Below are positions 12,936-54,786 of a stretch of DNA of 64,000 nt, in pieces. This DNA is from Vairimorpha necatrix (lineage: Eukaryota): contig CP142734.1 of assembly GCA_036630325.1 (NCBI GenBank), positions 558,001 to 622,000 of the forward strand. Direction: 5' to 3'. The notes beneath the pieces are model-generated. The model was not told where the DNA came from and ran no database searches. It was given only the letters and a program-made list of their open reading frames with translations. Each line of letters begins with the position of its first letter. The stretch's first letter is position 1. A program made the position numbers and the translations under genes.

Positions 12936-13199
12936 CAATATTTTAATTTTTATATTTTACCCCCAAGCAAGATGGAAGGAAAAGATGAAAAAACTAATAA
13001 ACACTCTAATATCGACATTTAGAGTAGGTTATATTGATGTTCTCTTTTGAAATGAGTAAATTGACAAACAGTACAATGTAAATGCTCATACCTAATATTT
13101 TTTAATCATCTATCTCTTATATCATCCTTCACATTTTTTTAAATGAAAATCTCTCACATTTAGGGATTCATATGGTCGGCGTTGGTTCGATGTCTGACA

Positions 13200-26523: not shown

Positions 26524-28401
26524 CTAATATAAATGTGAATTTTCGAGAAATTTCTCATAACTATTATAAACTATTATTTCCTTATCGTAAATCCCAACAA
26601 TTTTGTCAAATTTTTTTAAAAGATGATGTTTATGGATTATTGCAAAAATTGTCTTATCAAGTAAAAAATTATGCATCATATCGATAAGATTTTTCTCTGA
26701 TTTCGGATCCATGTTAGCAGTAGGTTCATCTAAAATAAATATATCTCCATTTTTGATTACGCCTCTTAAAAAAGAAATTCTTTGTTTTTCGCCACCACTT
26801 AAAAATTTACCATTGTCGCCTACGTCCATTTTATAATCTTTAAAGTTCATATTGTACATAGTACAAAGTTTAGGAATGTCGGGCACACTCATATTTTGAC
26901 TGTTATACAATAAATTATCCGCTATAGTACCATATAAAATTCCAGGTTCCTGAGGAATGAAGGAAACTTTATCCCTTTGGTCGATCTTATAAATATTTCT
27001 CATTTCTACGTTATCAATGTAAATTGATCCTTTATAATCTTTAAATCTTAAAAAGACATTAACTAAGGTAGATTTCCCAACTCCGTTTTTGCCAACTATT
27101 CCAACTTTTTCTCCCTTTTTAATTCTAAAATTAGCGGGTGTTGTCAAAATTTTATCTTCAATAGTCAACACAAAATCTTGAAAAGAGATATTATCATTAA
27201 AAATAAATTTCTTAGTTCCATCTCGTATTAAATCACCCTTTTGTGTCTCTATTATTGTACTTTTGATTATCTCAAAATCCATATAATCACTTATTTCTTT
27301 ATTTTTATCGACCTGAAACATTTTTTGATCTTTTAATTTGTCATTTTCAACTTTAATTTTTATTTCTTTGTCTTTATTATCAAAATTTTTATATTCATAA
27401 TATAGTTTCAAATTTTCAATATCATAACGTATTTCATCCCAATCATTATTTATAATGTCAGTATAATATTGTAAAAGAGTGTTGTATTCATTTCTAAATC
27501 TGTTAAATTGAAATCTCAAACCACAAAATAACTTGTTAAAAAGTATAAATCCTGCTACAGTGTGTACATTAAAATACTTGTTTTTATTCAAAATTAGATA
27601 AAAAACTAAGGAATGGTGTAATGTCACCATACTTTTTGAGAGAAATCCTGTAAATGCTGATAAAATTGCGGAGCGAATACCATAATATTTTATATTTCTG
27701 CATTGTGAAGCAAGAGTCACCAATTCGAGATCTTCATTTTTACTAGATTTAATAATATCATAATTATATGTAATTCTGTATAAATTATTAATAACTAAAT
27801 CATACTGGCTTGTATATCTATTTCTAATAATAGTTCTGACCTTGGCAATTGGCACAACCAAAATTAATACTAAAAACATAATACCTATAGAAAAAAGTGT
27901 AAGATATATATTAAAATAAATATACATCACAATAATAATTGAAATAATAGAAGTAATACTGTATGAAAATTCAAATAAAAAACGATGCAAACCATTAACA
28001 GTTTGAAACACTTTTCTGTCTAATATACTTCTAATTGAATTTGGTCCAATTTTAAAATAAGTCAATTGATTCAGATTCAATGCTTTTAGAATATAAAAAC
28101 AAATACAAATTCTGTAAGCTTTTGTCAAAAAATAAAGAGAAATTATTGGTAATAAGTGCATTACAACGTAAACTCCTAACTTCTTGAGAAAAATTATTAT
28201 CATGAGTGTAATACATTTATCCAGCTTTGATTTATTTCCAATATTTTTCAACAATTCAATCTCATCAAAGCAAACTGTAACTTCAATGTATGCGAAAATA
28301 AAAATTAAAGTCAAAACAATAAATATAAAAATTTTATATAATTTGTAGTCATTTAGGAAATTAAATAATATCTTTGTATCTTTGTTCATTGAGGGCGTCA
28401 T
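26524..28401 (-). CDS. Half-size ABC transporter, ABCB/ATM1-like (TMD + NBD, 625 aa)
   Basis: Several hydrophobic helices; Walker A GKNGVGKST; Q-loop FIPQE; signature LSGGEKQR; Walker B FILDEP; H-loop IIH. Confidence 0.93.
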   Translation of the reverse strand: MTPSMNKDTKILFNFLNDYKLYKIFIFIVLTLIFIFAYIEVTVCFDEIELLKNIGNKSKLDKCITLMIIIFLKKLGVYVVMHLLPIISLYFLTKAYRICICFYILKALNLNQLTYFKIGPNSIRSILDRKVFQTVNGLHRFLFEFSYSITSIISIIIVMYIYFNIYLTLFSIGIMFLVLILVVPIAKVRTIIRNRYTSQYDLVINNLYRITYNYDIIKSSKNEDLELVTLASQCRNIKYYGIRSAILSAFTGFLSKSMVTLHHSLVFYLILNKNKYFNVHTVAGFILFNKLFCGLRFQFNRFRNEYNTLLQYYTDIINNDWDEIRYDIENLKLYYEYKNFDNKDKEIKIKVENDKLKDQKMFQVDKNKEISDYMDFEIIKSTIIETQKGDLIRDGTKKFIFNDNISFQDFVLTIEDKILTTPANFRIKKGEKVGIVGKNGVGKSTLVNVFLRFKDYKGSIYIDNVEMRNIYKIDQRDKVSFIPQEPGILYGTIADNLLYNSQNMSVPDIPKLCTMYNMNFKDYKMDVGDNGKFLSGGEKQRISFLRGVIKNGDIFILDEPTANMDPKSEKNLIDMMHNFLLDKTIFAIIHKHHLLKKFDKIVGIYDKEIIVYNSYEKFLENSHLY

Positions 28402-29257
28402 ATAAAATCTTTATTTCAAAAAAAACGGAGAAATGAACTGGCATTCAGAAAAGTTATAGGAGATTCGAGAATATTATTTTTTAAAAATAAAAAACATTTT
28501 AATTGATAAATATAATTTTAAGATGCCAGAGCTAAGATACTAATGGTTAAAATAAAATCCGAATGAATTATTAATTGACAGGCGAGTTGATTGATGCATT
28601 TCGAAATTTGACAGGAGGGCAAGAAATTTGAGATTATAATAAGCTAATACCCGTTATTTAAAAATATGCAATATTTTATCTTTTTAATGATGTTTTCTAT
28701 AAAAAGTATGGTTAAAGAACACGATAGGTTATAAATTTGGGGTCATGTCGGCTTTGGCAGAAAAATTTCGATATCGGGGTTTTTTGTATTTTGTCCTCTT
28801 TTTTCCAAAACGTCGAAAATAAATTTAAGGAAGAGACAAAAAAATTTAATGCAACAAAATACTAATTAAATCATATCCATAAAAATTTGATACTTTCTAA
28901 ACGTTCTGATTTATATTGTACTTATGATAGTAGGTGTCTTTGTTCAATTTTTAACGTTTAGTAAAATAGCTAATTTGATTACAGAGAAGAATGAACATGA
29001 AATATTTTAAAATAAGAATTCTACATATTTCGCAACTGCATATAAAACAGTCAAAATTTCGGTTACTTGTTAATTCTGTTTAAAAGAACTTAAACCTTTT
29101 TAGAACGTGTAATTATTTAATTTTAATTAAAATTGTACATTTTTATTAGTTTATAGTTTGGAAAAAAAAATTGTAGAATGTTGACATTAGACAAAATATG
29201 AGGTTAAACAGTATTCTTTAATTATTGCCCATCTTCATGAATTCGAAGATGTTTTTA

Positions 29258-30838
29258 CAGGGTTTTGCATTTTTTTAGTCCAACTTTTGCATTTTTAAAG
29301 TCCAACTTTTGCATTTTTTATAGTCCAACTTTTGCATTTTTTATAGTCCAACTTTTGCATTTTTATAGTCCAACTTTTGCATTTTTATAGTCCAACTTTT
29401 GCATTTTTATAGTCCAACTTTTGCATTTTTATAGTCCAACTTTTGCATTTTTATAGTCCAACTTTTGCATTTTTATAGTCCATTTTTTGAAAAAAAACCA
29501 AGATTTGATAAAAAATCAAAAATCAATAGAATTATGCAAAAAATATATACAAACTCATTTAATTAGATAAACTCGTTTTTCTGCCTTGCCATTTCTAACC
29601 ATCTTAACATATTAGTGTAGAATCCATTACACGAAAGGCTGAAATCATCGTTCAGCACTTGTTCCAAATCCGTTTCAACAGCATTATTTGAGTTCCTTAT
29701 AGCACAAAACCTTGATTTTATCATAGAAAAAAACTCTTTAATTGGATTAAGCTGTGGGGAATACGGAGGCAAAAAAACATAAGATATGCCTAATTCTCTT
29801 AGCTTTCCTAAAACTTCTCTTGAATGATGAAATTTAGCATTATCCATGATTAAAATCTTTTGAGGATTTCTTTGGAAAAATTCTACAAGATGTCCTTCAA
29901 TAAATTCGACAAATAGAGCAGAATTATATGCGCCCCTTTTCATTTCGTATGCTATAATATTCGATTTTGAAATTACGCAAAGACAACTTAAATTTTTGCC
30001 TCGATTTGCAGGGACTGTTTTAAATGCTTTTTTATTTTTATATGAAAACCCATAATGCCTTGTGGTATGAGCATTAAATCCAGTTTCATCCAAAAAAATC
30101 AAATTTTCTAGTGAATATCCTGATATTTCCATAGCATATTCTGCTCTTTTATCAATTTTGTCCTGCGAATTACGCTCTGCAGGAATTAGAGACAGTCTTT
30201 TTCTTGTAATATTTAGATATTTCAACTTTCTCGAAATAGTTGACAAAGACATTGAAACATTTGCTATTGTATAAAGTTCTTCTTTGATTTCACTTAGAGT
30301 CTTGTCATTACTACGTGCAATGACGTTTTTAAGCACAATGTCGATAGGCTTTAAAACTCTATGAGCTTAAACTTTAGAACGATTTGTTGTTATTGTAGAA
30401 ACAATGGATTCTTCCTCTAACATTTTCCTATGGATCCTCCAAATTGTTTTATAACTTAAATCTAATGTTGTAGCAATATCTTTTAGGGTCAAGTTTTCGT
30501 TTTTTATATGTCTTTCAATGAGCTTTAAGACATCAGGAGTGACCGAAGATCTCGCTTTTCTAGGCATTAGGGGGTTTTTTTTTTCAAAAAAAAGGCCATT
30601 GAAATGCAAAAGTTGGACTATAAAAATGCAAAAGTTGGACTATAAAAATGCAAAAGTTGGACTATAAAAATGCAAAAGTTGGACTATAAAAATGCAAAAG
30701 TTGGACTATAAAAATGCAAAAGTTGGACTATAAAAATGCAAAAGTTGGACTATAAAAATGCAAAAGTTGGACTATAAAAAATGCAAAAGTTGGACTATAA
30801 AAAATGCAAAAGTTGGACTAAAAAAATGCAAAACCCTG
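29258..30838 (-). mobile_element. Tc1/IS630-like (DD34E) DNA transposon with long repeat-built TIRs
   Basis: Termini cagggttttgc / gcaaaaccctg flanked by TA. TIRs are built from a 22-23 bp unit tagtccaacttttgcattttta (9 copies left, 10 right). Confidence 0.95.
29563..30567 (-). pseudogene. Tc1/IS630 transposase with one in-frame stop and a catalytic E-to-K change
   Basis: HTH ORF (MPRK.. from 30567) and DDE ORF are in the same frame, separated by TAA at 30367-30369. Motifs FLDETG, IMDNAKFH and PYSPQLNPIKE, with K at the position of the DD34E glutamate. Confidence 0.88.
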
Positions 30839-30847
30839 TAAATTTAA

Positions 30848-32926: not shown

Positions 32927-34135
32927 TGCGCTACTTCAATTCCTTGCCCCCCCTAAAAAAAACTATTTAGAAGAAATTTTATTTATTTCTACTTACAAAG
33001 TTCTAAAATTTTTATATAAGCACAACTATGATCATCATTATTAGAATGATTGATATTTCTTTTTTTCCAAGTAAATTCATTTAGAAATAAATTAATCCTA
33101 TGCCTTTTGAGCCCACTTCTCGATCTATATTCATTCTTCAAATGGGACCACAAATTTACTATATTATTTGTGTGGTCTCCTTCTGCATTTTTAAATCCAA
33201 GCGAATGATTTATTATGTAATGTTCACTCCCAAAATTTCTAGAGGCTGGAGGGTATGAAGGGTATCCATCAGTAATTACAATAGAGCCACGTTTTACTCT
33301 GCGTCTAAAAAGGTCTTCAATAGTACTAGATTGTCGATTAGGTAGCAATTCAAGAACAAATTCTCTACAATTACCTTCTACTATGCCGCCTATAATCCAT
33401 TGAATTCCAGGCATGGAATCCAAAGTTGAAGAAGGATCAGATACAATTACACCGTTGCATATGGAGGTTTCATCAAATTGTACACAAACAGAAGTTCCTC
33501 CAATTTGGTAGCTATCATCGCTTTTAGAAGCAATGATTTCCATCACTGTATCCTTGATTTTAATATATGAATTTTTTACATATTTTGCAAAGAACTATTG
33601 CTTGGTAAGTAGTATAATTAAATACCCAGTAATAGAAAGCTCTAAGGATTTTGTGAAATAGAACGCTTATTCCTTTAAACATCGTACCATTTTTAAGTGA
33701 GCTCTTCGAACTACACTTTTTATTAACACAACGATAAGCTTTACCGTCAATGTAGCCGGAACATCCACTATTGTTCATAAGAACAGTTCGTTCTGATGTC
33801 TTACAATGTCTGCAAGCAATCGATCTTTTTAGAAGACCATTATCTAAAAAAAAATTGCTGCAACATAGTTCCTAAAGCACGCATCTTCGCAGATATTTAG
33901 CTCTCGAATAGCTTCCTGCAGATTCCTAATTAAGGGGTAAAAAAATTAAAATTTTTTAACCCCTTAATGAGGAATCTGAAGGAGGCATAAAAAAATTAAA
34001 TCGACAAAAAATACCTTAACTTCATTTTCTTGCCCCCCTCAAAAAAAAAATGTTTAGATTTGAAAAAAAACACGATTTTGTATCTTTTCATTGACGTTTT
34101 TTTTAGGGGGGGGGGTAAGAAAATGAAGTAGCGCC
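32927..34135 (-). mobile_element. Merlin transposon with disrupted transposase and no TSD
   Basis: TIRs (g)gcgctacttca.tt..tt.ccccccc. ORF 32989-33546 has QFDET, VITDGYPSY, INHS and HTNNI..LW. N-terminal cysteine-rich fragment at 33560-33778. Confidence 0.92.
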
Positions 34136-34672
34136 CATAAAAGTATCTAATGGGTACGGCAAAGTTGGAGCCCATGGCTGGTGCACTCTAGAGAGGGATC
34201 CTAGAGCTAGCCAAGAGACTAGACGAAGTATGACAATAGAAGGCCTCGTGGACCCTATTCTTTAAGATTCTGTAACACGGTGGCCGAACTAGTGCAAGAG
34301 TGGTGGTCAACGCAGCCCAATAAAAATGCTAGGCTGGTGATGTGGTCGTGTAAGGAGCCGTGTGGGCAATACAGATGATTGTAGGGACCTTTGAGTCAGT
34401 ACGATGATGCCTCTCCTCGGGTTATAGATAACCATGCTCGTTAAGTATATCCGCTGTGAGGTCACTCTTGACGCGATTTGAGGTATAAATGGAAAGTGTT
34501 CTCCTGGAGCCAAAGTCCAATGGATACGGCGAAGCTCGCTGCACCGGCAAGTTGTATAGGGGAGTTTTAGTGAGAAAGAATCTCACAGTACCAATTGGAT
34601 GAGGATCACACCCAAATCCAACTGGTCCCTATGTAAGGTTTCTCCCTAGCTCTTACTTGCAAGGAAAAAAAA
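34136..34672 (+). repeat. Dispersed poly(A)-ended repeat, copy 3 (5' end cut at the Merlin TIR)
   Basis: Homology to copy 1 starts at cataaaagtatc, immediately after the TIR. Confidence 0.82.
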
Positions 34673-35426: not shown

Positions 35427-36904
35427 TGGCGTGTTTACCGAGAAGCTTGCCTATGGCGAGGAAGCATTCAATGATGCTACGGTCTAGATTGCCGCGAAAA
35501 CCGGAGTTTAGATAACTTGAAGGAAAAGATTGTTCATTGTTATAAAAAGAATTTTGTTTATCTGTTTTGTAAAAGGAAGAGTGTTTGTTATTGTTCGGAT
35601 GTTGTACCATGTTGTTCATGGAATTTCTCTTTTATATTACATAGTAACCAATAGAAAGAAATAAGGATCCTAGTTTGCTACGCGCCCGGAGGGAAACCTA
35701 GTTTGTTATACGCCCGGAATAAAAAATTACACATTTTTAAGAGAAAAACTTTTCTAGCATGATAATAAAAAAGCAGCATTGTAAAAAAACAGGCTTGTTT
35801 TAGAATTAATTAATTTTATTGCTTATGGCTAGTAAAGATAGAATTCTGATGAACACAGTCTGCTTTACTCATCTCTGAACATCAGTTCAGCTAGAAGACC
35901 AGGAAGTTGTGCTTTTTTAACACCATACATTTTCTTAATCACAATCTTCATCTAATTCCAGAATGACTCTATGTTCTGGGTATGGGCTCCAGTTATCGGA
36001 TCAACGAAATTTGTCTTGTGGTTTACAACCAGATGACGGAACCCGAGACATCTTTCGATATTCACATATGATCCCCAGCCATCAGAGTGAATGATTGTGC
36101 CAGGTCTACATATCCTTGCAATGATCGGAAGCAAAACAGCAGCTGTTCGATTGGGAACAATTCCCATATAGCACTTCGCAGGAGAGAAAGAGGTGTCTGC
36201 GATCCCCAAAACCCACACATCACTTGATGGTGCTCTACCATGATGATGTTTGATCTTGTGGACGAACTGGCTTTCGTCGATCTGGAAAACAATACCTGGA
36301 CCTCCCAATCTCATAGAATCAGCCTCGAAGTATCCTTTAAGAATAGTTCTCAGCTTGTTTATAATTGCCACGATGCTGTTTCTTCTAAATCCATGCTCGA
36401 AAATGATCTCTTTAATTTGTTTTCCCTTGCTCCAAAGCATAATCATAGCGTAGATCTCGGACAATGGCAATTTAAATCCCTCAAAAAATGATCCAGTTCT
36501 AATGCTCTTTGTGCTTCTGTAGAGCCTGCACACTTTATTATCACATGTCCAGCATATAAGGTCCGGGCCTTTCTTTGATCTCTCAACCATGCCAGATGAA
36601 CACTCAGAACAGGACATACTGGTCAAAAGAAGGTTTTGTTCTCGCAGAACAGAAATCATCTCTCTTGGTGGCATTCTGCGGATTTGTACGTAACTTTCAA
36701 ACTGCGACACACCCGTTCTCACAAGGGTAAATTTTTAAAAACCTAGTTTGTTATACGCCCGGATAGGGCGTATAACAAACTAGATCCGAAATAAGATTTG
36801 GCTGGCCAATAATAGTCGACCATAACTGATCGTTCCGAAGAAAAATAAGCGTTTTAGTATTAATTGGTCTTTATAAATCATGTGATATGGTCCATTATAC
36901 CACA
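35427..36904 (-). mobile_element. Solo LTR of the B/F-type lineage, interrupted by a Merlin
   Basis: Minus-strand termini tgtggtataa...acgcca as in element F. Perfect TSD gtatg (35422-35426, 36905-36909). Encodes RSIIECFLA like the F LTR. Confidence 0.88.
35665..36787 (-). mobile_element. Merlin transposon with a 256-aa transposase ORF (35952-36722) truncated near the C-terminus
   Basis: TIRs ggatc(c)tagtttg; 7-8 bp TSD gaaataa(g). Zinc ribbon CSEC..C..C, QIDES, IHSDGW, VNH and HTQNIESFWN. Confidence 0.94.
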
Positions 36905-37722: not shown

Positions 37723-40066
37723 ACCCCGTAGAGAAATAAATAATTAAATACTTAGACATTAAAAAAAAATTTATTTAATGTCGTAGCCGATCAAATACTG
37801 ACCAATCATATTCGTACAAATGGACAGATTTGATTGGCTACAAAAAGTATTTAAAAACATTTCCAAAAGGAGGTGGAAAATAAGAATAAAGTTATTGACA
37901 TGGCGACAACGATAAACAATGTCAGCTATTACACAGGAGAGACCGAGGAGGACATTGACGCCTGGTTAAGAGACATCATGCTGCTAGGTAAAGTATCCAG
38001 CTGGGCCGAAAAGCAGTACAAAATAGCCATCATTAGTAAACTTATAGGAAAGGGTTTATCTTGGGCTATCCAAACATTAGGAGGGAAAACAGAATCAATG
38101 AAATGAAAGAGATAATTACTGGTTTGAAGAAGAGATTTAGCTCATCCAGGAATAATGACATAACTTTAACCAGATTCTTAGCATTAACAGTCCCAGAGAC
38201 TAGAGAAGATTATTCACAGATGTTGCAGGAAGCAACGTGATATTTGAGCAGGCGCTTATCAACCTTGATGCGTTATGCCAAATGATAATCAATAAATCGC
38301 CTATAGAGATCAAAGCTCTATTATATCAGACCGCCACTATAGTTTAGACTTGGCAGGAATTCATACAAAAGGCCGAAGAAATACCTTGGATTCCATATTC
38401 GGATAAGATGCAAGCTAGGACTGGGATCCACAGCAACACGGGCAAAGGGCCTTACTTTACAAATAGTCACGAGAGAAGACGCAAAGAAAACAGAACTTAC
38501 GAAAAATCACCGAGATATAACAATAAACATTGCACACTTCATGGAGAATGCAATCACTACTCAAGGGATTGCAAAGTGCTAACCGATATCATCGCTATGG
38601 AGAGAAACAATCTAAAAAGAAAAGGTATTAACGCGCTAGAGGATTATAAAGCGAAGAAGAAACGACTATAAATAAAGAAAATGAATTTTACTTGCACCGT
38701 TTAAAAAATAATTCTAATCCGTTTTTTGTTCAAAGCCGTATGTTTAATAAAAATATAAAAGCTTTATTGGATACTGGTGCCGATGTTTCTGCTATAGATT
38801 ACAATGAAATCCCACTGGAAGAACGGGATAAGATCATAAAATATAACGGGGTAGTAAGAGGCATAGGTAAAGAAATTTTAAAAGCAGAAGGATACTTAAA
38901 AGACTGTACAATCGAAATTCCCGGCAAACGCGTGAACTTCTCCCATAATAATTAGAGACAATAAGTCGTTATAATAGAAGCAAACGTAATATGTAGAACT
39001 TAAAACTAATTCTAGACATTTTAAACGCTCCAAATCGTAGAATAAATCAAAAATCTAATTTATCGGAACACTCAGAAGAAAATAGAGTCTTAAAAAGTTT
39101 GAAGACGTATTTAAATCCGAAATTGGAGACTATAATCTCTTCACTGCGAGAAAACATCGAATACTGACAAACAGTACTAAGATCATTTGTCAAAGAAATG
39201 GAAGAATCCCAATAGCACAAGAGGAAGCTGTCAACGACGAAATAAGCAAACTATTAAAGCTTGGCATACTAAATGTTGTATAACCACATGTTTCTAGAGT
39301 GACCAATCAATAAGGAAACGTCAAGCAGTTTCAAAACACGCCGATATATAACAAAGGCTAATGGTCCATTATGAAACATTCAAAGGTGGTTGGTGGACCA
39401 CAACTATAAATAGCAAAATTATGACGTAGACACGCATCCATGAACAGAAAATCAAACAGACATTTTTTGCCTAACAATAAACAAACAAAAACACCTAACA
39501 ATAAAACAATTAAAAATACTAAAACTAATTCTATAAGCGTGCTGGAACATTTTTACCAGCACGGATACGTCAGATTGAATTCAATAGACAAAGAAGTATC
39601 CACAAGAACGAAAAATATTGACAAAAATAAAAACCCCACAATCACTGACCTTTGAAGTAAATATAGAAGGATTATCAAATACATTAAAACAGCATATACC
39701 CACCATAGACGATGTCACGGGCGTTGACATGTGCAGCTGGCTAAAACAATTTGAAGAACTAAAACAAAATAACAAATGGACAAAAAACATAACAACACTT
39801 ATGCTCAAATAGCTATTAAAGGATGCAAGAATACCTAGTGAAGAAAATACAAAGGAATGGAAAGATCTAAAAGGATTTTTATTAAAACTTGTTTGATTAC
39901 CAACAGAGGAGAGATTGTATCTCAGGAGAATAGAAAAAACCTATCAAATCAATTTTAAAATTATTAAGGAATATTATACATCAATTAAGAAAAACCTCGA
40001 TATCTACAAAATCATAGCCAATCTAACAGAGCAAGAATATCAACGGAAGTTTGATTCGGTATTTTA

Positions 40067-43000
40067 TGTAGGGTTTAGAACCCTTAATAAATAAATGGTT
40101 AACATGGCGAACATAAGGATGAACAGGGAAACAAGAGAGTCCCGTAGTCAAGAGGCTAGAACATTAGAGAAAGAGGCAATTAGGATAGATAAGAGACTAA
40201 AGTTAATATTGAAAGTTGAGAAAGTTGAGTGGAAAGATGTTATGGATTTGGCATCTGCGATTTTGCAGGATTATATTTTTGAAAATTTTTGTGACGGAAG
40301 GAGCAGTTGGGAGGAAATTTATAAAGGCTTACAAAAAGGAGCAGAATTTGAGAGAGAGTCAGAAGAAAGACAAGAAATGATTAAAGAGATTATGGATAAA
40401 GTGTTGAAAGAGTTTAGGGAAGAAAGAAAAGAAAATCTTAGGATGTATAGGAAAAGAAGAGAAATCAGAGAAACTACAAAATGTTTTATATGTAAGAAAG
40501 AAGGGCATTACGCTAGAGAATGTCATGAAAGTGTAGCTGGTAGGGAAAAATATAAAATTAAAAAGGAACAAGTTTTACAGAAAGAACCAATTATCAACAA
40601 TGAAGGGAAAAGATGTAAAACAGTAAATAAGTTAGAAAATTTAATTGAAAAGTATCCGGAAGTATTTAAAGAATCAGAAGAAAAGATAAAATATCTCACA
40701 GGAGAGAAGTGTCCAATAAATACTAAGCAAGGTGAAAAGGTTGTGAAAAGAGGGCAGAATGTGCCATACTACCTTAGGGTGAAATTTGAGGAGTACTTGA
40801 ATAAGTTGGAAAATAGAGGGGTTATAAGACGTTCCAAAAGTGAGTGGAGGAGTCCAATAAGAGCACTTGAAAAACCAAATGGGGACGTAAGATTGGTAAG
40901 CAATTTGATGGCGTTAAACGATTTGGTTGACAAGGACCCGTACTCATTACCGTTAATTAAGGATATTATGAGAGCCACACAGGGGTCAAAAGTATTTACG
41001 GCAATCGACTTAAAAGAAGGGTTTTATCATATTGAGATTGAGGAGCACCATAAGCACAAAACAGCATTTGAAGTGAATGGTCGAGTATACGAATGGAATA
41101 GTATGGTTATGGGGTTTAAGAATTCGCCCCATATAATGCAGAGAGTAATGAACAGAGTTTTAGATGAATTCAGAGGTAAAGGCGTGGAAGTATATATGGA
41201 TGATATAGTTATTCATGGTAAAGACGTAAGAGTGCATGACGAGTTACTAGAGAGGGTAATTAAAAAGTTTAAAGAGTGTGGGTTGAGAATAAACCAAACA
41301 AAGATACAATACAAAAAAGATGAGGTGATGTTGCTGGGAGTAACAATTAATGGGGAGGTCATGGGACCGAATGAGATTAAAAAGCAGGAGACATTGGAAT
41401 ATAGAAAACCTGAGAATGTTAGAGAGTTAAGAAGATTTTTAGGACTAACTGGTTGGTTTAGAGACTTTATTCCCAACTATGCGTATAGAACAGTAAGGCT
41501 TACTGAGGCTTTAAAGAAAGATGTTAAGTGGAATTGGACGGAGGATATGGAAAGAGCTTTTGAGGATATGAAGCAAGGCTTGAGAGATATGAAAAAGTTG
41601 AAGATTCCGGACGGAAAAAAGCTATTTAGAGTAAGAACTGATGCGTGTGATACGGGGATCGGAGCAATTCTATTACAAGAAAATAAAGAGGGTGAGTGGA
41701 TTCCGATACAATGGGCATCGAAAATGTTGACTCCTACCGAGCGAAGATATACGATAAGTGAGAAGGAGATGTTGGCGGTGTTTTTTGGAATAAAGAAGTT
41801 TGAAAGTGATTTGAGAGGAAGGAAATTTCATTTGATGACGGATCATAAAGCATTAGCAGAGATCAGAAATAAGCCATACTTCAATAATAACAGAATAAAC
41901 AGATGGGTAGAACAGATACAAGAGTTTGACTTTACAATAGAGTATGTGAAAGGGGAGTTGATGACAGATGCAGATGCGTTAAGCAGGCAGTATGATCAGG
42001 TAGAAGTTTCGGATGAACAAAAAGAAAAGGACAACAAGAGAAAAGAAGTGATCGAAAAACAAATTTTGGGAAAAAAGCAGAAACATATTAAAGAAAAGGA
42101 CGGTAAACAGTATTGGGAATTTTCCACAGGTGAGGTGAAAGAGATATTGAGCCTAGATAGTAGAGAACATGAAATAACAAGAGTACATGAGGAGTTAAAC
42201 CATAGAGGTGTCAAAGGCACTAATTATAACATTAAACAAAGATGGTATTGGCCTGGTATGAAAGATCATATTAATAAGGTAATTAAGAATTGTGAAATAT
42301 GTGGGATTAACAATAGGAAAAACACAGGAGGATGTGATTTCGTAGTAACTAGAAAGAAATTGGAGAAAGTGGCGTTGGATTTAATGGACATAGGTGGAGA
42401 GAATAGGTATGTGTTACTGGGTATTGATTACTTTACTAGAAGGTTGTGGGTTCGAATTTGAGATGTAAAGAGAGTAGTGAAGTTATAGAGGTATTACAAA
42501 AGTGGATAAGGGAAGATGGATTTCCAGAGGAATATGTGACAGACAACGGAAAAGAGTTTGTAAGTAATAGATTTAAAGAATGGTGTAGTATTAATGATAT
42601 TAAACATAGGAAAGTGGGCTTAGAAGCTCATAGGAGTAATGGTAGAATCGAGAGATGCATCAGAACTATAAGAGAGACATTGATAAAGCAAAATGATGGG
42701 AATATTTCTGAAAAGATAGAAAGAGCAATCAAAGGATATAATAATACACTACATACAGCAATAAAATGTACGCCGATGGAAGCGTGGAGAGATCAAACTG
42801 CTGAAGTTATAATTGAAAATGATGAAAATGGAAAATATGCTGATCGGTTCAAGAGAAGACACAGAGAGACATTTACAGTAGGCCAAGAGGTAAGAATCGC
42901 TAGGAGAGAAAATTTAGGTACACGTGCGAAAACAGACAAGGGAAGATTCACGGGTCGCGGAAGGATCGTAGCTATAAGTGAAAATGATTCATATATTGTG

Positions 43001-43140
43001 AGACTACTGGATGGTAAAATTGTTAAAAAAAGGCATTATGATTTGAAAGAGATAAGGAAGAGTTGTTTAGAAGATGGAGAGACTACCCGTCTGGAGGGGG
43101 GATGTAGGGTTTAGAACCCTTAATAAATAAATGGTTAACA
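40067..43140 (+). mobile_element. Element C: 3074-bp gypsy with identical 38-bp LTRs and no protease
   Basis: tgtagggtttagaacccttaataaataaatggttaaca at 40067-40104 and 43103-43140; TSD tttta; PBS-like tggcgaac; PPT ggagggggga. Confidence 0.96.
40095..43114 (+). CDS. Element C Gag-RT-RNaseH-integrase polyprotein with one frameshift at ~42450
   Basis: ORFs 40095-42461 and 42446-43114: CFICKKEGHYAREC, YMDD, TDAC, HHCC, DLMD / TDNG / GRIER. Confidence 0.93.
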
Positions 43141-45208
43141 TTTTATAACGGATTAGGTAGATATTCTTACGGAAAAATCGTCGAAATAGCCTTTGACACC
43201 TTTTATGGATGCTATGAGTTTTTAAACGACGTAGAGCAAAAACTGACAGCTAGATTTCAAGAACTAAAGAATAAGCCCAAGGAATCTCAAATACATACAA
43301 GATCATATGAAAACAAATTTTGCAGATTTCATAAATGGGGACTCCATTCGACAGAAGAATGCAAGAAGTACGATAAGGATTTTTACATTCAACAGAAAGA
43401 TAAAGAGCAACACTTAAATATAATAAAAGAACCTCAAACAGAATTGTCAAAAATTGCAATAACGAGAACTATTCAAGAATAAAAAATCGAATTCTTACTC
43501 GACACGGGAGCAAAGAAAAATTATATTAGTCAAGCCAAAGCAAAAAGCTTAAATTTACAACCCATTCAAGGCAAGGGAATAACAAATATATACGGGAACT
43601 GAAGTAAAGAAACAATCAGTCAAGTTGTAAATATCAAATTTAAAATTAGGAACATTAAACAAGATTTCAATGAGGAAGTATACATAGTAGAACCCCTCCC
43701 TGAAGACATAATACTGGGAGCAAGATTCATCATCAATAATGACATGATTTTAGACTTCAAGAACAAAGCCATAATACTTAACAACCAAATTACATCAGTG
43801 GCAAATAACCAGGAATTGGAACCAATAGAAATGGAAAGCATTTTATATTCTAGACTCTGTTGCATAAGAGAAATCGACCAGCTTGAGGAAACAACACTTA
43901 AAAACAATATAACAAGATACATAAAAGAAAACGGGTTTAACCAGATTAGTATCGACGAGAAAAGCAGAAAGTTAACATCATTTACAATTTTAGGACAGCA
44001 GTACAGATATACAAGAATACCGTTCGGTTTAAAGTCAGGCCCCGAGATTTTTCAAATGACGATAAACAAGAAATTATAAGGGGTAAGGAATTGTGCAGTT
44101 TATATTTACGACATAGTAGTTTACACAAATACCTTAGAGGAGCTTATACGCACAGTGAATGAGGTATTGAACGCACTAAGGGGATTTAACGTAAAAATCA
44201 ATTTTGAGAAAAGCACATTTTTAACGCAAAAACTAAAATTACTAGGCAACGTTATTGAAAACGGACAAATAAAAATTGACAACAAAAACATTGAAAAAAT
44301 ACTAAATTCAAATTCTGTACCAAAAAACAAAAGATATTCAGAAATTATTAGGAATTATAGCATGTATAGAAACTTTATACAAGATGTCAGAAGAAAACTA
44401 TCATGTATCACCAAATTATTATGAAAAGAAACAACTATAAATTGGGAACAAAAACATATCGAAGCATTAGAACAAATAAAATAAGAAATCGCAACTAAAG
44501 CGACACTAAAACTACAAGATTTTAAAAAAGCATTTCACATAGAGTTCGATGCATCAATGGAAGGAATGGGGACGGTTCTATTCCAGGACCATGGAGTAAT
44601 AAATTACTACAGTAAAAAATTTAACGAAACAGACAAAACTATTCAATCATGGAAAAAGAAATGTACGCGATCGTAAAAATCCTAGATTTTTATAGAAACA
44701 TCATGCTTGGTTTCCACGTAATTGTACATACCGACAGCCAGAATTGTATTTTTGAGAATAAACAGGTTTCGAAAAGGTTGGAGAGATGGAAGATGATTCT
44801 AAATGAATTCAACATTACTATTAAAAATCCCCGGAGACGAAAATAAGATCGCAGACAGCTTATCAAGATGCTCAGAATAATTCAAACAGAATGAACTACG
44901 GGCAACGAAAATCACCAGAGAGAACTGAAAAAAAAATAACATAATAAATAAGTACATGCAGGCATATCTACACTATATTATAACATAAAAGACTATTACA
45001 AGATACCCTATCTCTCAAGAATAATAAAAGAGACAATAAATAAGTGCGAAAAATGCATAAGATGCAAAAACAACAAAAAATCCGATAAAACAAAATCTAA
45101 TATACAGGCACGCAGTTCATTTCAAATCTTGTGTACAGATATTTTCGGCCCATTCGAGTTAACAGACTACGTACATAATGAGATACAAAACAAAGGATTT
45201 TTTCTAAC

Positions 45209-48200
45209 TGTTGAGTGAAATAATAATTATTTATAGCCCCTATTCTAGAATAAATGTTTATGGTGGAGAATATGAAAACAGAGATTAGTAGTGAAAATAT
45301 CTTGCAGGAGCTACAAAGAGCTTCTTTACTTTCCAGTTTTAATAAATTATCAAATGAGGAAAAAATTGATTATTTTATTCATAAAGCCAACATTGAGATA
45401 CTAGATTGGCATAGTAAGTTAATGAAGGAGAAACGGAAATGTTCCTTAACATTTGAAATGTGGAAAGAGTTGGCAGAAACGGAATTTGACTGCGGTACTG
45501 GATTGTACGAATTATATACTTTAAAACAAAAAGAAAACCAAAGTATTGTGGAATTTATCAAAGATGTAGAAAAGAAATGTCTAAAGGAAAATATCAGAAA
45601 TACGGATAAAAGGAAGATAATAAGAAATGGAATCCTATCAAGATATAAGGCTATAAAAATGGTATTAACGGGGCAATATGAAATTAATAAAGAATTCCTT
45701 GAAATAATTGATGAAATGGAAAAGGAAAATAACGATATAACAAAAATAAGACAACCTGCCTCCAATAACATCAACAAAAGATATTCATGTTATTTTTGCC
45801 ACAAGGATGGGCATATCGCTAAAGACTGTTTTGCGAAGAAGAAAATAACTGATGGTAAACAACTACAGTATAAAAGGATAAATGAGATCCACCAAGAAGG
45901 CGGAATGTTGGATGCAAACTTTATTAACAATAAAGAAGATTTAATATATGTTTATAATGAAAAAATTAATGTAACTTTTGACTCGGGTTCTTACTATAAT
46001 TTTATAAGTAAAAAGGCTGCTTCTGAACTAACTTTAAAAATTTATAGAAGTACAGAGGAAATATATTTTTTAACATGTTTAGAAGAAAGATTCGGGATTA
46101 CAGAATATGTGATATTAGATTTCTCTTATGGTGGTAAAAGTTATCGTTCTAAATTTTTTATATTCCCTAAGGTGGAAAAATTTAAAATACTTGTAGGAAA
46201 AAAGACATTACAAGAAATATTGAAAAGGGTGTCTAGCAATAGAATTTGTGAAATAAATACGATAAAAGGAGAAAAAATTGTTGAAAAGGTCTATACACTA
46301 CCAAAAAAGTTAGAAGAAGGAGTGGAAAAATCTATCAAAGAACTACTAAGGAAAAATTACATAAGAAAATCAAAATCAACGTGGTTGAATAATTTAAGAC
46401 CAGTAATTAAACCAGATGGTTCTATAAGAGTTACTACAAATTTAGTTTCGTTAAACAAATTGGTAGAGCTAGATAATTACTCCTTACCACACATTGATAA
46501 GCTTTTATACGGGCTTCGTGGAAAAAAATATTTTAGTAAATTGGATTTAAAAGATGCATTTTTTTGTATAGAATTAGCGGAAAAGGATAGATATAAGACC
46601 GCTTTTAGATTTAAGCACCTATTATATGAATGGAACGTTATGCCAATGGGGTTTAAAAATGCTCCGGCAATTTTTCAAAGATTTATAGATGATGTTTTAC
46701 AAGAAGAAATAGGGAAAAGTTGCTTCGTGTATGTGGATGACATACTGGTTTTTGGAGAAAACGAGGAAGAACATGATTTTAATTATGAGAAGATCATAAC
46801 AAAGCTTAAAAGCTATAACTTAGGTATTAATGAGGATAAAACAATATATAAGGTTAAAGAACTTACCTTTTTGGGACATTTAATAGCATATAACGAAATT
46901 AAGCCAAAAATTACACGGGACCAAGCAATTAACGATATGAAAAGACCAATCAATAAAAAATCACTGCAAGAATTTCTGGGACTTATTAATTATTATAGAA
47001 AATTTATTTCTAATTGTTCAAAAATCGGAGGATGTTTATATGATCTTACAAAAAATGATATTCAATTTAATTGGGGGAAGGAACAGGATGCTGCTTTTAA
47101 TACATTAAAGAAAATTGTATTGTCGAGCAGTGTGCTTAAACAGCCAGATTTTAGTAAACCTTACATATTAGAAACGGATGCATGTGACTCTGGTCTGGGA
47201 GCGATCTTGTCACAAGAAAATGAAGGGCATGTGTACCCAATCGCGTACGCTTCTAGAAGATTGGTTCCAGCGGAAAGAAATTACAGTATCAGCGAGAAAG
47301 AATGCTTGGGTGTCCTATGGGGAATGGAAAATTTTAGATATTTTTTATATGGAAATGAGTTTAAAGTAATAACTGATCACAAAGCTCTAGAGGTCCTAAA
47401 TAAAGGCGAAATAAAATCGTTACGTATACAAAGGTGGCTTGATAAATTGAGTGAGTATAATTACACGATCGAGTACAAAAGGGGGACAGATATTCCTCAC
47501 GTCGATTGTTTGTCAAGATCTTATCTTAATGAGTTAAATACGGATGAAATAAATATGATTGAATTTAGCGAAGAAGAAAAAAGGTCTATCATAAGGAATA
47601 AACATATAGAATTAGTTCACAGAGGATCAAAAGTTATTGAAAATGAATTAAGGAAAAAATATCATTGGAAAGATATGTCGCATATGGTAAAAACGGAAAT
47701 TAATAAATGTCTAAGATGTAAGATGTACAATCCACAAAGAGGAAAAAAATTTATATTTGTGAAAGCATACGAACCTGGCGAAAAGGTAGCTGCCGATATT
47801 ATAGGACCAATCAATGGAAGCTATATAATTACGGCGATCGACTATTTTACAAGGAAAGCATGGGCTAAAGTCATTACTACTAGAGAGAGTAATAAGCTAG
47901 TGAAATTTTTTGATGAAGTTTATAATGACATAAAGATTAAAATACTAATTCTTGATCAGTCAAAAGAAAATTTGAGTATTGAGGTAAAACAATGGGCAAC
48001 GAGAAATAATGTTCAAATTCATTATATTTCCCCTTTTCATCACCAATCAAACGGAAGAATAGAAAGATTTAATAGGACAATACAGGAAGGTATATATAAA
48101 GATAATAGTTTTGGAAATTTGAAGACAAAAACTAAGCGTGTACTAGATGTATACAATAATGTTAGACACTCCGCTCTTGGCATGTCGCCAGACGAAGCAT

Positions 48201-48542
48201 GTAATCCTAAGAGAGCTCAGGAGATTAAACTAAAACAATTCGAAGAAATCGTAAAATTCAACCAACGACAGAAGAAAAGAGGAGCTGAATTTATTTTTAA
48301 AGAGGGAGATAGAGTTATAATTAGAAGAGAAACCGATTTAACAAAGGGAAAACCTAGATTTGAATCGCAAGGTATAATTATTAATATTTTAGGAAATAAT
48401 TCTTATAACGTTAAGGTCCATAATAAAACTATAAAGCGACATGGCTCGCAACTTAAGCTAATAGTAGAGGATTATTTTGAATGAGGGGGATGTTGAGTGA
48501 AATAATAATTATTTATAGCCCCTATTCTAGAATAAATGTTTA
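45209..48542 (+). mobile_element. Element D: intact 3334-bp gypsy with identical 52-bp TG...TA LTRs
   Basis: LTRs 45209-45260 and 48491-48542; TSD ctaac; PBS tggtggagaa (tRNA-Ala-like 3' complement); G-rich PPT. Confidence 0.96.
45254..48484 (+). CDS. Element D Gag-PR-RT-RNaseH-IN polyprotein (1076 aa, uninterrupted)
   Basis: CYFCHKDGHIAKDC, FDSGS, YVDD, ETDAC, HHCC, ADIIGP / LDQ / GRIER. Confidence 0.97.
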   Translation: MFMVENMKTEISSENILQELQRASLLSSFNKLSNEEKIDYFIHKANIEILDWHSKLMKEKRKCSLTFEMWKELAETEFDCGTGLYELYTLKQKENQSIVEFIKDVEKKCLKENIRNTDKRKIIRNGILSRYKAIKMVLTGQYEINKEFLEIIDEMEKENNDITKIRQPASNNINKRYSCYFCHKDGHIAKDCFAKKKITDGKQLQYKRINEIHQEGGMLDANFINNKEDLIYVYNEKINVTFDSGSYYNFISKKAASELTLKIYRSTEEIYFLTCLEERFGITEYVILDFSYGGKSYRSKFFIFPKVEKFKILVGKKTLQEILKRVSSNRICEINTIKGEKIVEKVYTLPKKLEEGVEKSIKELLRKNYIRKSKSTWLNNLRPVIKPDGSIRVTTNLVSLNKLVELDNYSLPHIDKLLYGLRGKKYFSKLDLKDAFFCIELAEKDRYKTAFRFKHLLYEWNVMPMGFKNAPAIFQRFIDDVLQEEIGKSCFVYVDDILVFGENEEEHDFNYEKIITKLKSYNLGINEDKTIYKVKELTFLGHLIAYNEIKPKITRDQAINDMKRPINKKSLQEFLGLINYYRKFISNCSKIGGCLYDLTKNDIQFNWGKEQDAAFNTLKKIVLSSSVLKQPDFSKPYILETDACDSGLGAILSQENEGHVYPIAYASRRLVPAERNYSISEKECLGVLWGMENFRYFLYGNEFKVITDHKALEVLNKGEIKSLRIQRWLDKLSEYNYTIEYKRGTDIPHVDCLSRSYLNELNTDEINMIEFSEEEKRSIIRNKHIELVHRGSKVIENELRKKYHWKDMSHMVKTEINKCLRCKMYNPQRGKKFIFVKAYEPGEKVAADIIGPINGSYIITAIDYFTRKAWAKVITTRESNKLVKFFDEVYNDIKIKILILDQSKENLSIEVKQWATRNNVQIHYISPFHHQSNGRIERFNRTIQEGIYKDNSFGNLKTKTKRVLDVYNNVRHSALGMSPDEACNPKRAQEIKLKQFEEIVKFNQRQKKRGAEFIFKEGDRVIIRRETDLTKGKPRFESQGIIINILGNNSYNVKVHNKTIKRHGSQLKLIVEDYFE

Positions 48543-51500
48543 CTAACAATTACTGATGTGTACAGCAGATACACAGAGGCAATATTAATGACAGCAATAA
48601 AGCAAAAAGAACAAATAAAAACATTCAAAGATTGGTTTAACAAATATAAAGTATCAACAAAAATTATCTCGGACAATGGTAAGCAATATATGGGCAAAGA
48701 TTTTTCAAGATTTTTAGCAGAACACCAAATAACTCACGAATGTACACCATTGTACCATCCAGCCCCGAACGGCATTAGTAAAAGACTGAACAAGATATTA
48801 GCGGAAGTTTTAAGGATTTATAAAAATGTGAAGATTAAGAAGGTCGCAGTATTATTCAACAAGAGATTAAATATAAATTATCATAGGACACTGGGAATGT
48901 TTCCAAACGCCATTGTATATGGCTGTTCATACTTCGATAAAAAGAAAAGGAAAATCATATACATACCGAAAACACAGGTAAATAAGATTGATGAGGCAGC
49001 ATTAGAAAAGCGAAACGAAAAGCTAGGAGATAGTATTTATATAAGAAATTTTACACAGAATAAACTTCAAGACAAGTTTATTGTACTATATAAAATTGTA
49101 GAAATAAGTAAGTAAAATATGTGTTTCCGAATAAATGAGAAAGATGAGTGGATAAACAGGAATGACATAAAATTCATTTCGTCTTGCTTGGAGGGGTAGT
49201 CTGTGGTATAACCACATGTTTCTAGAGTGACCAATCAATACGAAAACGTCAAGCAGTTTAAAACAAACCAATATTTAGAAAAGTTATGGTTCATTATGAA
49301 ACATTCAAAAGTGATTGGTGAGCCACAACTATAAATAGCAAAATTATGTCGTAGGCACGAATCCATGAACAGAAACTCAAACACACATTTTACAGCTAAC
49401 AATAAACAAACAAAAACACCTAACAATAAAACTATTAAAAATGCTAACATTAATTTTATAAGCACGCTGGAACATTTTTACCAGCATGGATACGTCACTA
49501 AAAAAAGAAGAAGTCCTTGGCGCAGTAGAATACTTATGGTACCAACCCCCGATAAAACATGGAGAATGTGCGTCGACTATAGAGGGCTTAACAGTATAAC
49601 TATAAAATATGCATATATGACTCCAAGAATAGACGAAATATTTGAAAGTTTATCAAATGTGACTATTTTTACAGTATTGGACGCCACGAGCGGGGTTCAC
49701 CAAATACCCCTACAATAAGAAGATAGAGAAAAAACTGCATTTTCATATAAGGGACAACTATACGAATTTAATCGTATGCCTTTCGGTCTTTGAAACGCCA
49801 TAACAACTTTTCAAAGAGCAATGGACAACATATTTAGAAAAGAAATTCATAATTTCGTGATACCATATGAAGACTACACTATAGTATATTCAAAAAACAG
49901 AGAAGATCATATGAAACACGTGATGATAGTACTAGGAAAAATTAGAGCTGCAGATCTACCGCTGAATAAAATAAGTTTAAGTGCATTAGATCTGAGATAA
50001 AAATTTTGGGAAATGTAATGGGACACGGAATTATAAAGATAGATGAAACGCGTATCAAAGATATATAAGCGTATCCGATTCCTTCTACTATAAAGGAATT
50101 GAGAATTTTTTTAGGAATAGCAAATTATTGTAGAGATTTAGTGGAAAAAATGGCGGGAATCGCGGTTCCTTTGTATGACATACTCAAAGGCGAAAAGCAG
50201 ACGTCGAATGAAAAAATAAACCTTATTGATGAGCAACTAGTTACATTTAAAACTGTAAAAAAAGATTAAAGTAGGAATATCATACGTACACAGCAAAAAT
50301 TCCATGCTCCCTTTATATTAGTGACAGACGCGTCGGAAACGGGGATTGGAGCAGTACTTTTACAAAAGAAAGAAGGAGGAAATGAAAAGATGATAACTGC
50401 ATTCAGCAAGAGACTAGATAATTGCCAAAAAACTATTCGGTAACCGATAATGCACTCCTTGGTTTAGTAAAAGGCAATGAACATTTTAGGCATTATCTTT
50501 GGGGAAATAAGTTTACACTAAGAACAGATCATATAGCTTTGATCTACCTATGGGCAGTAAAGGATCCGACAAGTAGGATTCTCAGGTGAGCTTTTAAACT
50601 AGCAGAGTACAACTTTGAACTTGAATATATAAAGGGAGAACATAACAATCGGATGGTTTTAGTAGAACCTATCAAGAGCATGAAACGTGCAACATCGAGG
50701 TACACCAGTTAGCGAATAATACCAAAAATATACTAGAATAGTACCACAAGATTTCAGGGCATGGATCGTCAAATACCATAAAATTTATGATTTCACAGAC
50801 ACATAAATGAAGAAACATGAACCGAAATATATCACAATTCGTAAGAAATTGTGAAATGTGTTTACGCCCAGGCTATAAATGCGTGAAAACGAAAAATAAA
50901 GTAATACTCTCTGAAAGACCCAACTAGCTTTATGAGTTCGATCTTTTAGGTAAACTCTCTGACAGCATTGGAAGTAGATATATATTTGTTGCAATCGATC
51001 ATTACTCTAAGTGGATAGAGACCAAGATTTTACAAAGTAAAAAATGATCTGAAATATATGATGCGATCGAAGAACTAATCATTAGTAAACACGGATACCT
51101 GAGAGAGTCCTGATAGATAACGGGTTGGAGTTTGACAATTTAGAAGTACAATCACTAGCGAATAAATATAATATATCATGGGAATTTTGTTCTCCATACC
51201 ATGATCAGACCACGGGCGCCGTCGAAAGGGTCATATAGACACTGGCGAACAAAATAAGAAAATTACCAAATTATGGCGATTTAGTTGGAGAAAAGTCGTT
51301 AAAGAAGCTACCTTGGCAGTTAATCTGTCTTTTAATCGATCAATAGGAACTTCTCCGTATATCTTAAGATTCGGCCAGCAAATAAAACTGCCGTAGACGA
51401 GGAATGGGCGTCATTCCTAAGACTTATACTAAGCAAGAGTTATTAAGAAAGTGAGACCTAACCCTCAAAAAATACAGTAAGGCTATAGTCAAAGGGTTAA

Positions 51501-54500: not shown

Positions 54501-54786
54501 ATTCATCAAAAGAGAATCAAAGTAGTAAAGTATAAACTGGGCCATAGAGAATAAAGTGAAGGTACATTATACAACACCCTTTCATCATCAGTCGAATGGA
54601 CGAGTAGAAAGGTTTAATAGAACTGTCCAGGAAGGAATTTACAAACAGGGGGGAGATCTAAATCTAAAATCAAAACTATTGGAAATGTTAGAGGCTTACA
54701 ATAATATCAGCCACTCAAAACTAGGAATGTCTCCAAATGAAGCTTGCAAAAAGTAAAATGAAACAAAAATAAAAGAGAAACAGTAC

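Follow-up and report, generated by a model that had tools for sequence, protein, structure and literature searches.

We analyzed a 64,000-nt stretch of the genome of the microsporidian Vairimorpha necatrix (assembly GCA_036630325.1, contig CP142734.1, positions 558,001 to 622,000 of the forward strand; hereafter the window), in which two long terminal repeat (LTR) retrotransposons, elements B and F, have a perfect 12-nt palindrome at the position where a primer-binding site (PBS) for a tRNA is expected. The palindrome is a genuine and non-random feature, and its position fits a primer site. To our knowledge, reverse transcription is primed by a host tRNA in almost all retroviruses and LTR retrotransposons, and self-priming of the Tf1 type is the sole exception that has been worked out. 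We tentatively favor the reading that in the B/F lineage the palindrome is the start site of minus-strand synthesis and that the primer is the element's own RNA, not a tRNA. All coordinates below are positions in the window.

Both B and F are genuine Ty3/gypsy elements, with LTRs of the form TG..CA and 5-bp target duplications. The domain order by which Ty3/gypsy elements are recognized, namely gag, protease (PR), reverse transcriptase (RT), RNase H (RH), and integrase (IN), is found in both, F being without RT. According to Pfam, F encodes gag, aspartyl protease, RNase H, and the zinc finger and core of integrase; its RT has been deleted, and the gap between PR and RNase H is only ~57 aa. Element B has a gag-PR region matching that of F, RT (RVT_1, open reading frame (ORF) 43603-44079), RH, and IN (rve, ORF 48531-49115). 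The proteins of B and F share 28-31% amino-acid identity in four tblastn segments over gag-PR, RH, and IN. Their main features are the following.

39274-39572, plus strand: 5' LTR of B, 299 nt, TG..CA, with TATAAATA at LTR position 132 and AATAAA at 203 and 227
39539-39562, plus strand: U5 stem-loop of B, GTGCTGG, 10 nt, CCAGCAC (7-bp stem)
39573, plus strand: spacer of B, a single G between the LTR CA and the palindrome
39574-39585, plus strand: palindrome of B, ATTGAATTCAAT, perfect, 12 nt, at the PBS position
49190-49199, plus strand: polypurine tract of B, GGAGGGGTAG, 2 nt 5' of the 3' LTR
49202-49497, plus strand: 3' LTR of B, ending in CA, with the target duplication CTAAA at once after it
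58182-57842, minus strand: 5' LTR of F, 341 nt, TG..CA, with TATAAATA at LTR position 139 and AATAAA at 230
57841, minus strand: spacer of F, a single T after the LTR CA
57840-57829, minus strand: palindrome of F, TTTGAGCTCAAA, perfect, 12 nt, at the PBS position, with TGGCAAT next to it (57828-57822)
57818-57828, minus strand: TGGCAATAAAG of F, adjoining the palindrome on its 3' side and complementary at 10 of 11 positions to the U5 sequence CTTTCTTGCCA at 57879-57869
57645-57647, minus strand: in-frame TAA in gag of F, where B and the V. necatrix homologue have W
55130-55140, minus strand: polypurine-rich tract of F, GGAGTTGGCAG, 2 nt 5' of the 3' LTR
55127-54787, minus strand: 3' LTR of F, ending in CA, followed by the target duplication GTACT

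Element B is a decayed copy, with a frameshift, stops, and LTRs that are 88% identical over 299 nt. The LTRs of F are 99.7% identical over 341 nt (about one difference), and thus its family has been recently active. To judge from its gene content, F looks like a non-autonomous element copied in trans; a V. necatrix protein 62% identical to F (P0001) comprises gag-PR-IN, without RT and RH.

In both elements the palindrome occupies positions +2 to +13 after the LTR end, and neither 3' LTR has a copy of it, both stopping at CA. A canonical tRNA-type PBS, with TGG within a few nucleotides of the 5' LTR, is absent from B and F, where the first TGG past the LTR lies at +166 and +14, respectively. 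At seven of the nine 5' LTR junctions definable in the window, TGG stands 0-2 nt past the LTR (elements H, H', N, E, and C, the 7177-13199 element, and the junction at 34682), B and F being the two exceptions. The original prediction, made from the sequence of the window, had stated that both elements lack an abutting TGG-type PBS and have instead a perfect 12-nt palindrome 1 nt past the terminal CA, and both statements hold with the exact LTR ends. A weaker stem at 12026-12041, which it had likewise taken for a PBS substitute, turns out to lie inside the 5' LTR end of the minus-strand 7177-13199 element, and this element has an ordinary PBS.

12024-12013, minus strand: PBS TGGCGGCAACGA of the 7177-13199 element, whose 5' LTR ends in CA at 12028-12027, followed by AA and then by the PBS

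The end of an LTR is set by the start of minus-strand synthesis together with a short trim by integrase, usually of ~2 nt. Since the 3' LTRs of B and F end at CA without the palindrome, the most likely start of copying is the palindrome's 5' edge, and the near identity of the two F LTRs indicates that this boundary was functional in a recent copying cycle. The primer would then end in the sequence of the palindrome, which differs between B and F, and no tRNA ends in this way.

Two further observations concern the LTRs of this lineage. The starts of B/F-type LTRs form an inverted repeat, TGTGG..CCACA in B and TGTGGTAT..ATACCACA in F, with one mismatch in the solo LTR. In sequencing run X1, three contigs have TGTAACCAATTTAGAATG.. 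after a B-type LTR end (39572) instead of the palindrome; TGTAACCAATTTAGAATG resembles a diverged LTR start, and the arrangement may come from LTRs joined in tandem or from a copy nested at another genomic site.

39274-39290, 49202-49218, 58182-58157 (minus strand), and 36904-36881 (minus strand, solo LTR): inverted repeats at LTR starts

Covariation, coding context, and predicted structure

The palindrome cores of B and F show four differences, which fall in two pairs (1/12 and 6/7). Both pairs are compensatory, as had been proposed, and so is a third one, with U-A exchanged for C-G, which connects the flank with the LTR end. The predicted extension of the F pairing into the LTR end is present as well, as GCCA/UGGC with a 1-nt bulge; B has GUC/GAC and an A.A mismatch there. 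The two junctions align over 23 gapless columns, of which 15 are identical. Six of the ten proposed pairs are invariant, three have changed on both sides, and none has changed on one side only; 19 of the 20 cells are paired, the A.A of B being the unpaired one. Because perfect 12-nt palindromes are frequent in the window (43 versus ~31 expected), the weight of the evidence rests on the common offset and the paired changes, and not on the palindrome itself. The probability that a 12-nt palindrome survives four random substitutions is P = 0.0034, or 0.0046 in a composition-weighted simulation.

The same differences bear on the idea that priming is by a piece of a host tRNA, either a fragment or an internal stretch, as in half-tRNA priming of the copia/Ty5 type, or by some other host RNA with an end that matches the palindrome. 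Half-tRNA priming is a known mechanism, and ~2% of plant elements use a half-molecule tRNA according to a plant survey (PMC6317226). However, with B and F differing at four of 12 positions, two primers would be needed, each with a perfect 12-nt palindrome, and a loopless palindrome of this length would fit no tRNA arm; we regard this explanation as improbable. The left half of the F site may agree at ~8 of 10 positions with the complement of the anticodon arm of initiator tRNA, a resemblance that is not shared by B.

The palindrome lies inside the coding sequence of gag, because gag begins within the LTR.

58013: gag ATG of F, at LTR position 170, 31 nt past the start of TATAAATA
39440: counterpart ATG of B, at LTR position 167, 35 nt past the start of TATAAATA

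The frame initiated in the LTR continues into gag in F. Its counterpart in B meets a stop ~70 nt past the LTR, and homology to gag is found again in a different frame, a switch that we take to be a frameshift of a decayed copy. The palindrome encodes ..R-L-N-S-I.. in B (context ..GYVRLNSIDKE..) and ..I-L-S-S-N.. in F (context ..GKYAILSSNGNKG..), and farther downstream the homology among B, F, and the V. necatrix protein is clear. With the amino acids and the codon usage of the window taken as fixed, the probability of a palindrome is 0.022 for B and 0.0025 for F. The central pair of F is maintained by AGC, a rare Ser codon that accounts for 11% of the Ser codons in window ORFs. Coding constraint fails to explain the symmetry.

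A search with the N-terminus of Gag (122 aa) against 1.84 billion representatives gave seven matches, three of which were judged real (P0001, P0125, and P0126). Only P0126, a Gag homologue of Nosema granulosis, covers the site. Its residues at the corresponding position are L-S-S, as in F; they are compatible with the palindrome but are weak evidence for it. With residues 1-110 of P0126 as the query, no match was found besides the protein itself.

Taken together, the pairing data and the codon-aware probabilities make it very unlikely that the palindromes are due to chance or are a by-product of coding and common descent. The abundance of 12-nt palindromes in the window speaks for such an origin, as do the coding nature of the site, the homology of B and F there, and the sample of two. 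Against it stand the same offset from the LTR end in both elements, differences that are all compensatory (P ~0.003-0.005), the codon-aware probabilities, and the rare Ser codon of F.

The following dimer and fold values are energy predictions, not structural evidence. The palindrome alone gives no hairpin (0 kcal/mol) in either element but a homodimer of -10.8 kcal/mol in B and -15.3 kcal/mol in F. For 93-nt segments, the dimer is predicted to be preferred over two monomers by -11.8 (B) and -16.5 (F) kcal/mol. In the predicted monomers of both elements, the LTR-end and leader sequences pair around the palindrome.

39563-39601, plus strand: predicted hairpin of B, GGAUAC/GUAUCC and GUC/GAC with the palindrome at the apex, spanning the LTR end

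The B hairpin has a minimum free energy of -10.1 kcal/mol and a z-score of -3.4 versus mononucleotide shuffles, and the z-score of the F hairpin is -3.2. The predicted monomer fold of F consists of GCCA, a bulged U, the palindrome, and UGGC, with CUUUCUUGCCA/UGGCAAUAAAG as an alternative. The U5 of F has only short hairpins, which differ from those of the related solo LTR, while B has the 7-bp stem listed above. Covariation of the central pair 6/7 is impossible in a hairpin loop and points to a paired state in which two strands form a complete duplex.

Sister elements and a proposed priming model

The mini-LTRs of the sister elements N and E contain a 12-nt palindrome of their own, which follows CCCC, stands 8 nt before the LTR end, and is accompanied by the conserved PBS TGGTGGAGAATATG.

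45241-45252 and 48523-48534: palindrome of N, TATTCTAGAATA
58472-58483 and 51792-51803: palindrome of E, TAAGATATCTTA, the 5' copy agreeing at 11 of 12 positions

The N and E palindromes show six differences in three pairs, all of them compensatory (P ~0.0008-0.0012). In N and E the palindrome is thus within the LTR with TGG after it, whereas in B and F it is outside the LTR. The N/E palindrome could be a dimer linkage or a promoter element.

This sister lineage is one ground for the view that the B/F palindrome is a dimer-linkage or packaging signal only, with the primer elsewhere, for example a tRNA at TGGCAAT of F followed by a 13-nt integrase trim, or another RNA. We hold this view, the main rival of the favored reading, to be possible but doubtful. 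It agrees with a covarying palindrome beside a conserved TGG PBS in N and E, with the stable homodimer duplex predicted for B and F, and with the resemblance of TGGCAAT, which adjoins the palindrome in F, to the PBS of H' (TGGCAAAC). The sequence TGGCAATAAAG, of which TGGCAAT is the beginning, may be what is left of a PBS of the TGG type, or it may form the 3' side of a stem between U5 and the leader. On the other hand, B has 165 nt without TGG, and the acceptor stem implied by TGGCAATAAAG of F would be nearly all A/T, unlike that of a nuclear tRNA. In addition, priming at a TGG would copy the palindrome into the 3' LTR, as in N and E; such a copy is absent from B and F, and only a trim of 13 nt would account for this.

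We consider it unlikely that the palindrome is a symmetric DNA site for a dimeric protein of the host or the element, with no role in priming. Mirror-image changes of half-sites are what a homodimer selects, the cores GAATTC and GAGCTC are classical 6-bp symmetric sites, and in N and E the palindrome has a TATA-like/CCCC stretch on one side and AATAAA on the other within LTRs of 52-56 nt, a possible place for a promoter element. In B and F, however, the palindrome is ~170-200 nt downstream of the TATA box and within coding sequence, the missing PBS would be left unexplained, and the covarying flank pair, which reaches into the LTR end across a bulge, fits RNA pairing better than a rigid DNA site.

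According to the favored reading, which we regard as the most economical and in which the palindrome is a self-complementary primer site, the palindromes of two genomic RNAs would pair into a 12-bp duplex; a fold-back of the site and its flanks in a single RNA is the less likely variant. One strand would then be nicked where the palindrome has its 3' edge, with the RNase H of the element RT as the most likely nuclease, as in Tf1. This nick would create a 3' OH that is base-paired with the first base of the partner palindrome, and its extension would copy the 1-nt spacer, U5, and R into strong-stop DNA. If both RNAs were nicked and primed each other, RNase H would clear the copied R-U5 and leave RNA primers of ~12 nt, and integrase would trim the product back to CA. 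The position of the palindrome, the LTR boundaries, the lack of an abutting TGG and of a Tf1-type complement, and the covariation are seen in the sequence; the pairing of the RNAs, the nicking, and which RNA is the primer are the parts of this model that we infer.

The idea of tRNA-independent priming or dimerization, as first proposed, is consistent with the palindrome in the PBS slot, the absence of a copy from the 3' LTRs, the TGG at the seven other junctions, and the compensatory changes. A mechanism of the Tf1 type, in which the transcript 5' end serves as the primer, was rejected, as the longest LTR complement to the first 25 post-LTR nucleotides is 6 nt in both elements.

Several points weigh against a self-complementary primer site. 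The covarying palindrome of N and E stands beside a normal TGG PBS, and such palindromes therefore have a function that does not require a role as PBS. The feature is present in only two elements, one decayed (B) and one without RT (F), and in F TGGCAAT follows directly on its 3' side. The shuffle control was not significant, with 67 of 500 shuffles reaching the observed value, and a sample of two cannot reach significance. Symmetric changes are also expected from a dimeric DNA-binding protein, and a tRNA fragment or other host RNA would serve as primer under the improbable alternative described above. Finally, the model requires a means of stopping plus-strand copying of a long RNA primer, and the nick on which it depends is a postulate.

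A more elaborate joint reading, which we put forward as a minor possibility, combines reciprocal priming within the dimer, identity of dimer linkage and primer, an N/E-like ancestor, TGGCAAT of F as a relic, and independent invention of the comparable site in fungal GalEa elements (see below). Each RNA, nicked at the 3' edge of the duplex, would prime strong-stop DNA on the other, and the LTR boundary would have shifted to the 5' side of the palindrome from an N/E-like ancestor in which the palindrome was next to a tRNA PBS.

Further copies of the B/F lineage were sought in other sequence collections. A profile search of genome contigs gave 134 pattern matches and no relatives. The pattern CTGGN{7,10}CCAGN{4,5}ATACGYCA had at least 120 matches in genome contigs (those listed being bacterial or archaeal) and at least 118 in viral contigs (from viral-collection contigs); it was too loose, and these matches were judged to be due to chance. 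Among metagenome contigs, 17 loci with 22-54% identity were compared with themselves, and no usable LTR-PBS junction of the B/F lineage was found; palindromes were listed in eight of these loci, and the first 800 nt of L001 were read. Three of the loci (L002, L007, and L011) have terminal repeats at contig ends.

The window and its nested elements

The window is AT-rich, and its transposable elements are nested in one another. The named proteins nearest to its ORFs are from Microsporidia. The F ORF, besides its V. necatrix match, has matches in Nosema granulosis and Dictyocoela, and an ABC transporter gene of the host (26524-28410) is 67% identical to a V. necatrix ATM1-type transporter. ARAGORN found no tRNA genes in the 64-kb window, and there were no matches to Rfam families at gathering thresholds. 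The elements around B and F are arranged as follows.

37779 onward: C-family element with a 122-nt LTR; B sits within it, and its 3' LTR is split by E
39274-49497, plus strand: element B, containing the complete nested elements H and N
40067-43140: element H, in B, with LTRs of 38 nt (40067-40104 / 43103-43140) and target duplication TTTTA
45209-48542: element N, in B, with LTRs of 52 nt (45209-45260 / 48491-48542) and target duplication CTAAC
51757-58491: element E, with LTRs 51757-51811 / 58436-58491, containing F
54787-58182, minus strand: element F, inside E

The coding pieces derived from B lie at ~39.6-40.07 kb, 43.15-45.2 kb, and 48.55-49.18 kb. ORF 40095-42461 was rejected as a gene of B, as it is part of the nested element H. 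Both H and N are complete gypsy elements of ~3.1-3.3 kb, and the LTRs of H, N, and E are 38-56 nt long, with perfect 5-bp target duplications. AATAAA is present within these mini-LTRs; in H, U3, R, and U5 together would have to fit into 38 nt. The open frame that follows the LTR in H, N, E, C, and H' has as its first ATG the last A of the LTR joined to the TG of the PBS.

40104-40106 (H), 45260-45262 (N), 51811-51813 (E), 37900-37902 (C), and 62771-62769, minus strand (H'): sites of ATG/PBS overlap

Of the four sequencing runs listed for this region, two contain part of F, and no RNA run was among those listed. Among the listed differences of the four runs from 39000-58300 (with 1740 more beyond the listing), none falls on either palindrome, which speaks neither for nor against its conservation. 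A joint of 54781 to 58183 in two contigs of sequencing run X1 corresponds to E minus F, and these contigs may represent other copies of E. The F-family solo LTR at 36904-35427 (minus strand) has the target duplication CATAC and is broken by an IS1595/Merlin-like transposase ORF (35952-36734); another such ORF is at 32989-33594. A Tc1/mariner-like DDE_3 ORF (29563-30366, minus strand) lies within 29254-30842, bordered by 237-bp inverted repeats that are 98% identical and consist of arrays of a 22-bp tandem repeat. In addition, a repeat of ~540-770 bp is present in three copies (17398-18155, 21807-22565, and 34136-34671), which are 75-86% identical, one of them inverted.

Comparison with known systems

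The closest parallel is provided by the fungal GalEa Copia elements, in which a tRNA PBS is absent and a palindromic "Conserved Hairpin Site" (CHS) abuts the LTR (Donnart et al. 2017, PMC5445492). There, the CHS is described as 9 bp long and palindromic with the last A of the LTR, with the sequence CTGATCAGT or CTAATTAGT in 85% of families, and a second complementary copy (CHSeq2) is placed 12-41 bp downstream; the authors propose the CHS as a PBS replacement and state that no known model fits (PMC5445492). Elements B and F share with this description the absence of a tRNA PBS, a short palindrome at the 5' LTR, paired changes (CTGATCAGT versus CTAATTAGT in GalEa), and a larger predicted hairpin that is interrupted at the LTR junction by a bulge or internal loop. 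They differ from it in that their palindrome is 12 nt long and starts 1 nt after CA, whereas the CHS includes the last A of the LTR; in that it lies in gag coding sequence, whereas the CHS is described as non-coding; and in that they are Ty3/gypsy elements of a microsporidian and not Copia elements of Pezizomycotina. A second CHS-like copy is absent from B and F, the best agreements being 8/12 at +32 and 9/12 at +66 in B and 9/12 at +113 in F, counted from the first base past the palindrome. Membership of B and F in the Ty1/copia clade of GalEa was rejected, as the domain order and the Pfam matches are of the Ty3/gypsy type and the closest proteins are microsporidian gypsy polyproteins.

In Tf1, the transcript's initial 11 bases anneal to the PBS, and cleavage by RNase H falls between bases 11 and 12 (PMC7175516). 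The Tf1/sushi elements of Schizosaccharomyces pombe (Tf1 and Tf2) resemble the model for B and F in priming by their own RNA, here a proposal, after RNase H has cut where an RNA-RNA duplex ends; the PBS of Tf1, however, is not palindromic. A U5 stem-loop lies next to the Tf1 PBS, and the 7-bp stem of B is a candidate counterpart, F having only short hairpins there. Among the Pfam matches of the 833-aa ORF of F there was no chromodomain at the C-terminus of integrase.

Retroviral dimer initiation site (DIS) palindromes are ~6 nt long and stand in a hairpin loop beside a separate tRNA PBS. As in HIV-1 DIS and MLV PAL, the site in B and F is a 5' self-complementary sequence whose variants stay self-complementary through paired changes, and it is predicted to pair two genomic RNAs. 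It differs from the retroviral sites in being 12 nt long and in filling the PBS slot, with no separate abutting PBS, and N and E match the retroviral layout better than B and F do. In Ty1 of Saccharomyces cerevisiae, gag starts in the 5' LTR and the primer site lies in gag, as the palindrome does in B and F; Ty1 differs from them in its canonical PBS, which is for initiator tRNA.

Self-priming is the mode predicted for 12% of the elements in a survey of plants, and 6% had no PBS (PMC6317226). We found no description of PBS types of microsporidian LTR elements in the literature, although an older study of Nosema bombycis may contain one. For annotation, LTR finders that are based on the PBS would miss or misjudge elements such as B and F, and the F family offers a testable system.

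A palindromic stand-in for the PBS has been reported once before, in fungal Copia elements and with its mechanism unsolved, and the principle is therefore not wholly new. The new aspects in B and F are a palindrome that is longer, perfect, covarying, and coding, and the presence of sister elements in which a comparable palindrome stands next to a normal PBS. If the favored reading is true, occurrence of this principle also in microsporidian Ty3/gypsy elements would suggest a second route of tRNA-independent priming, general in nature, beside that of Tf1.

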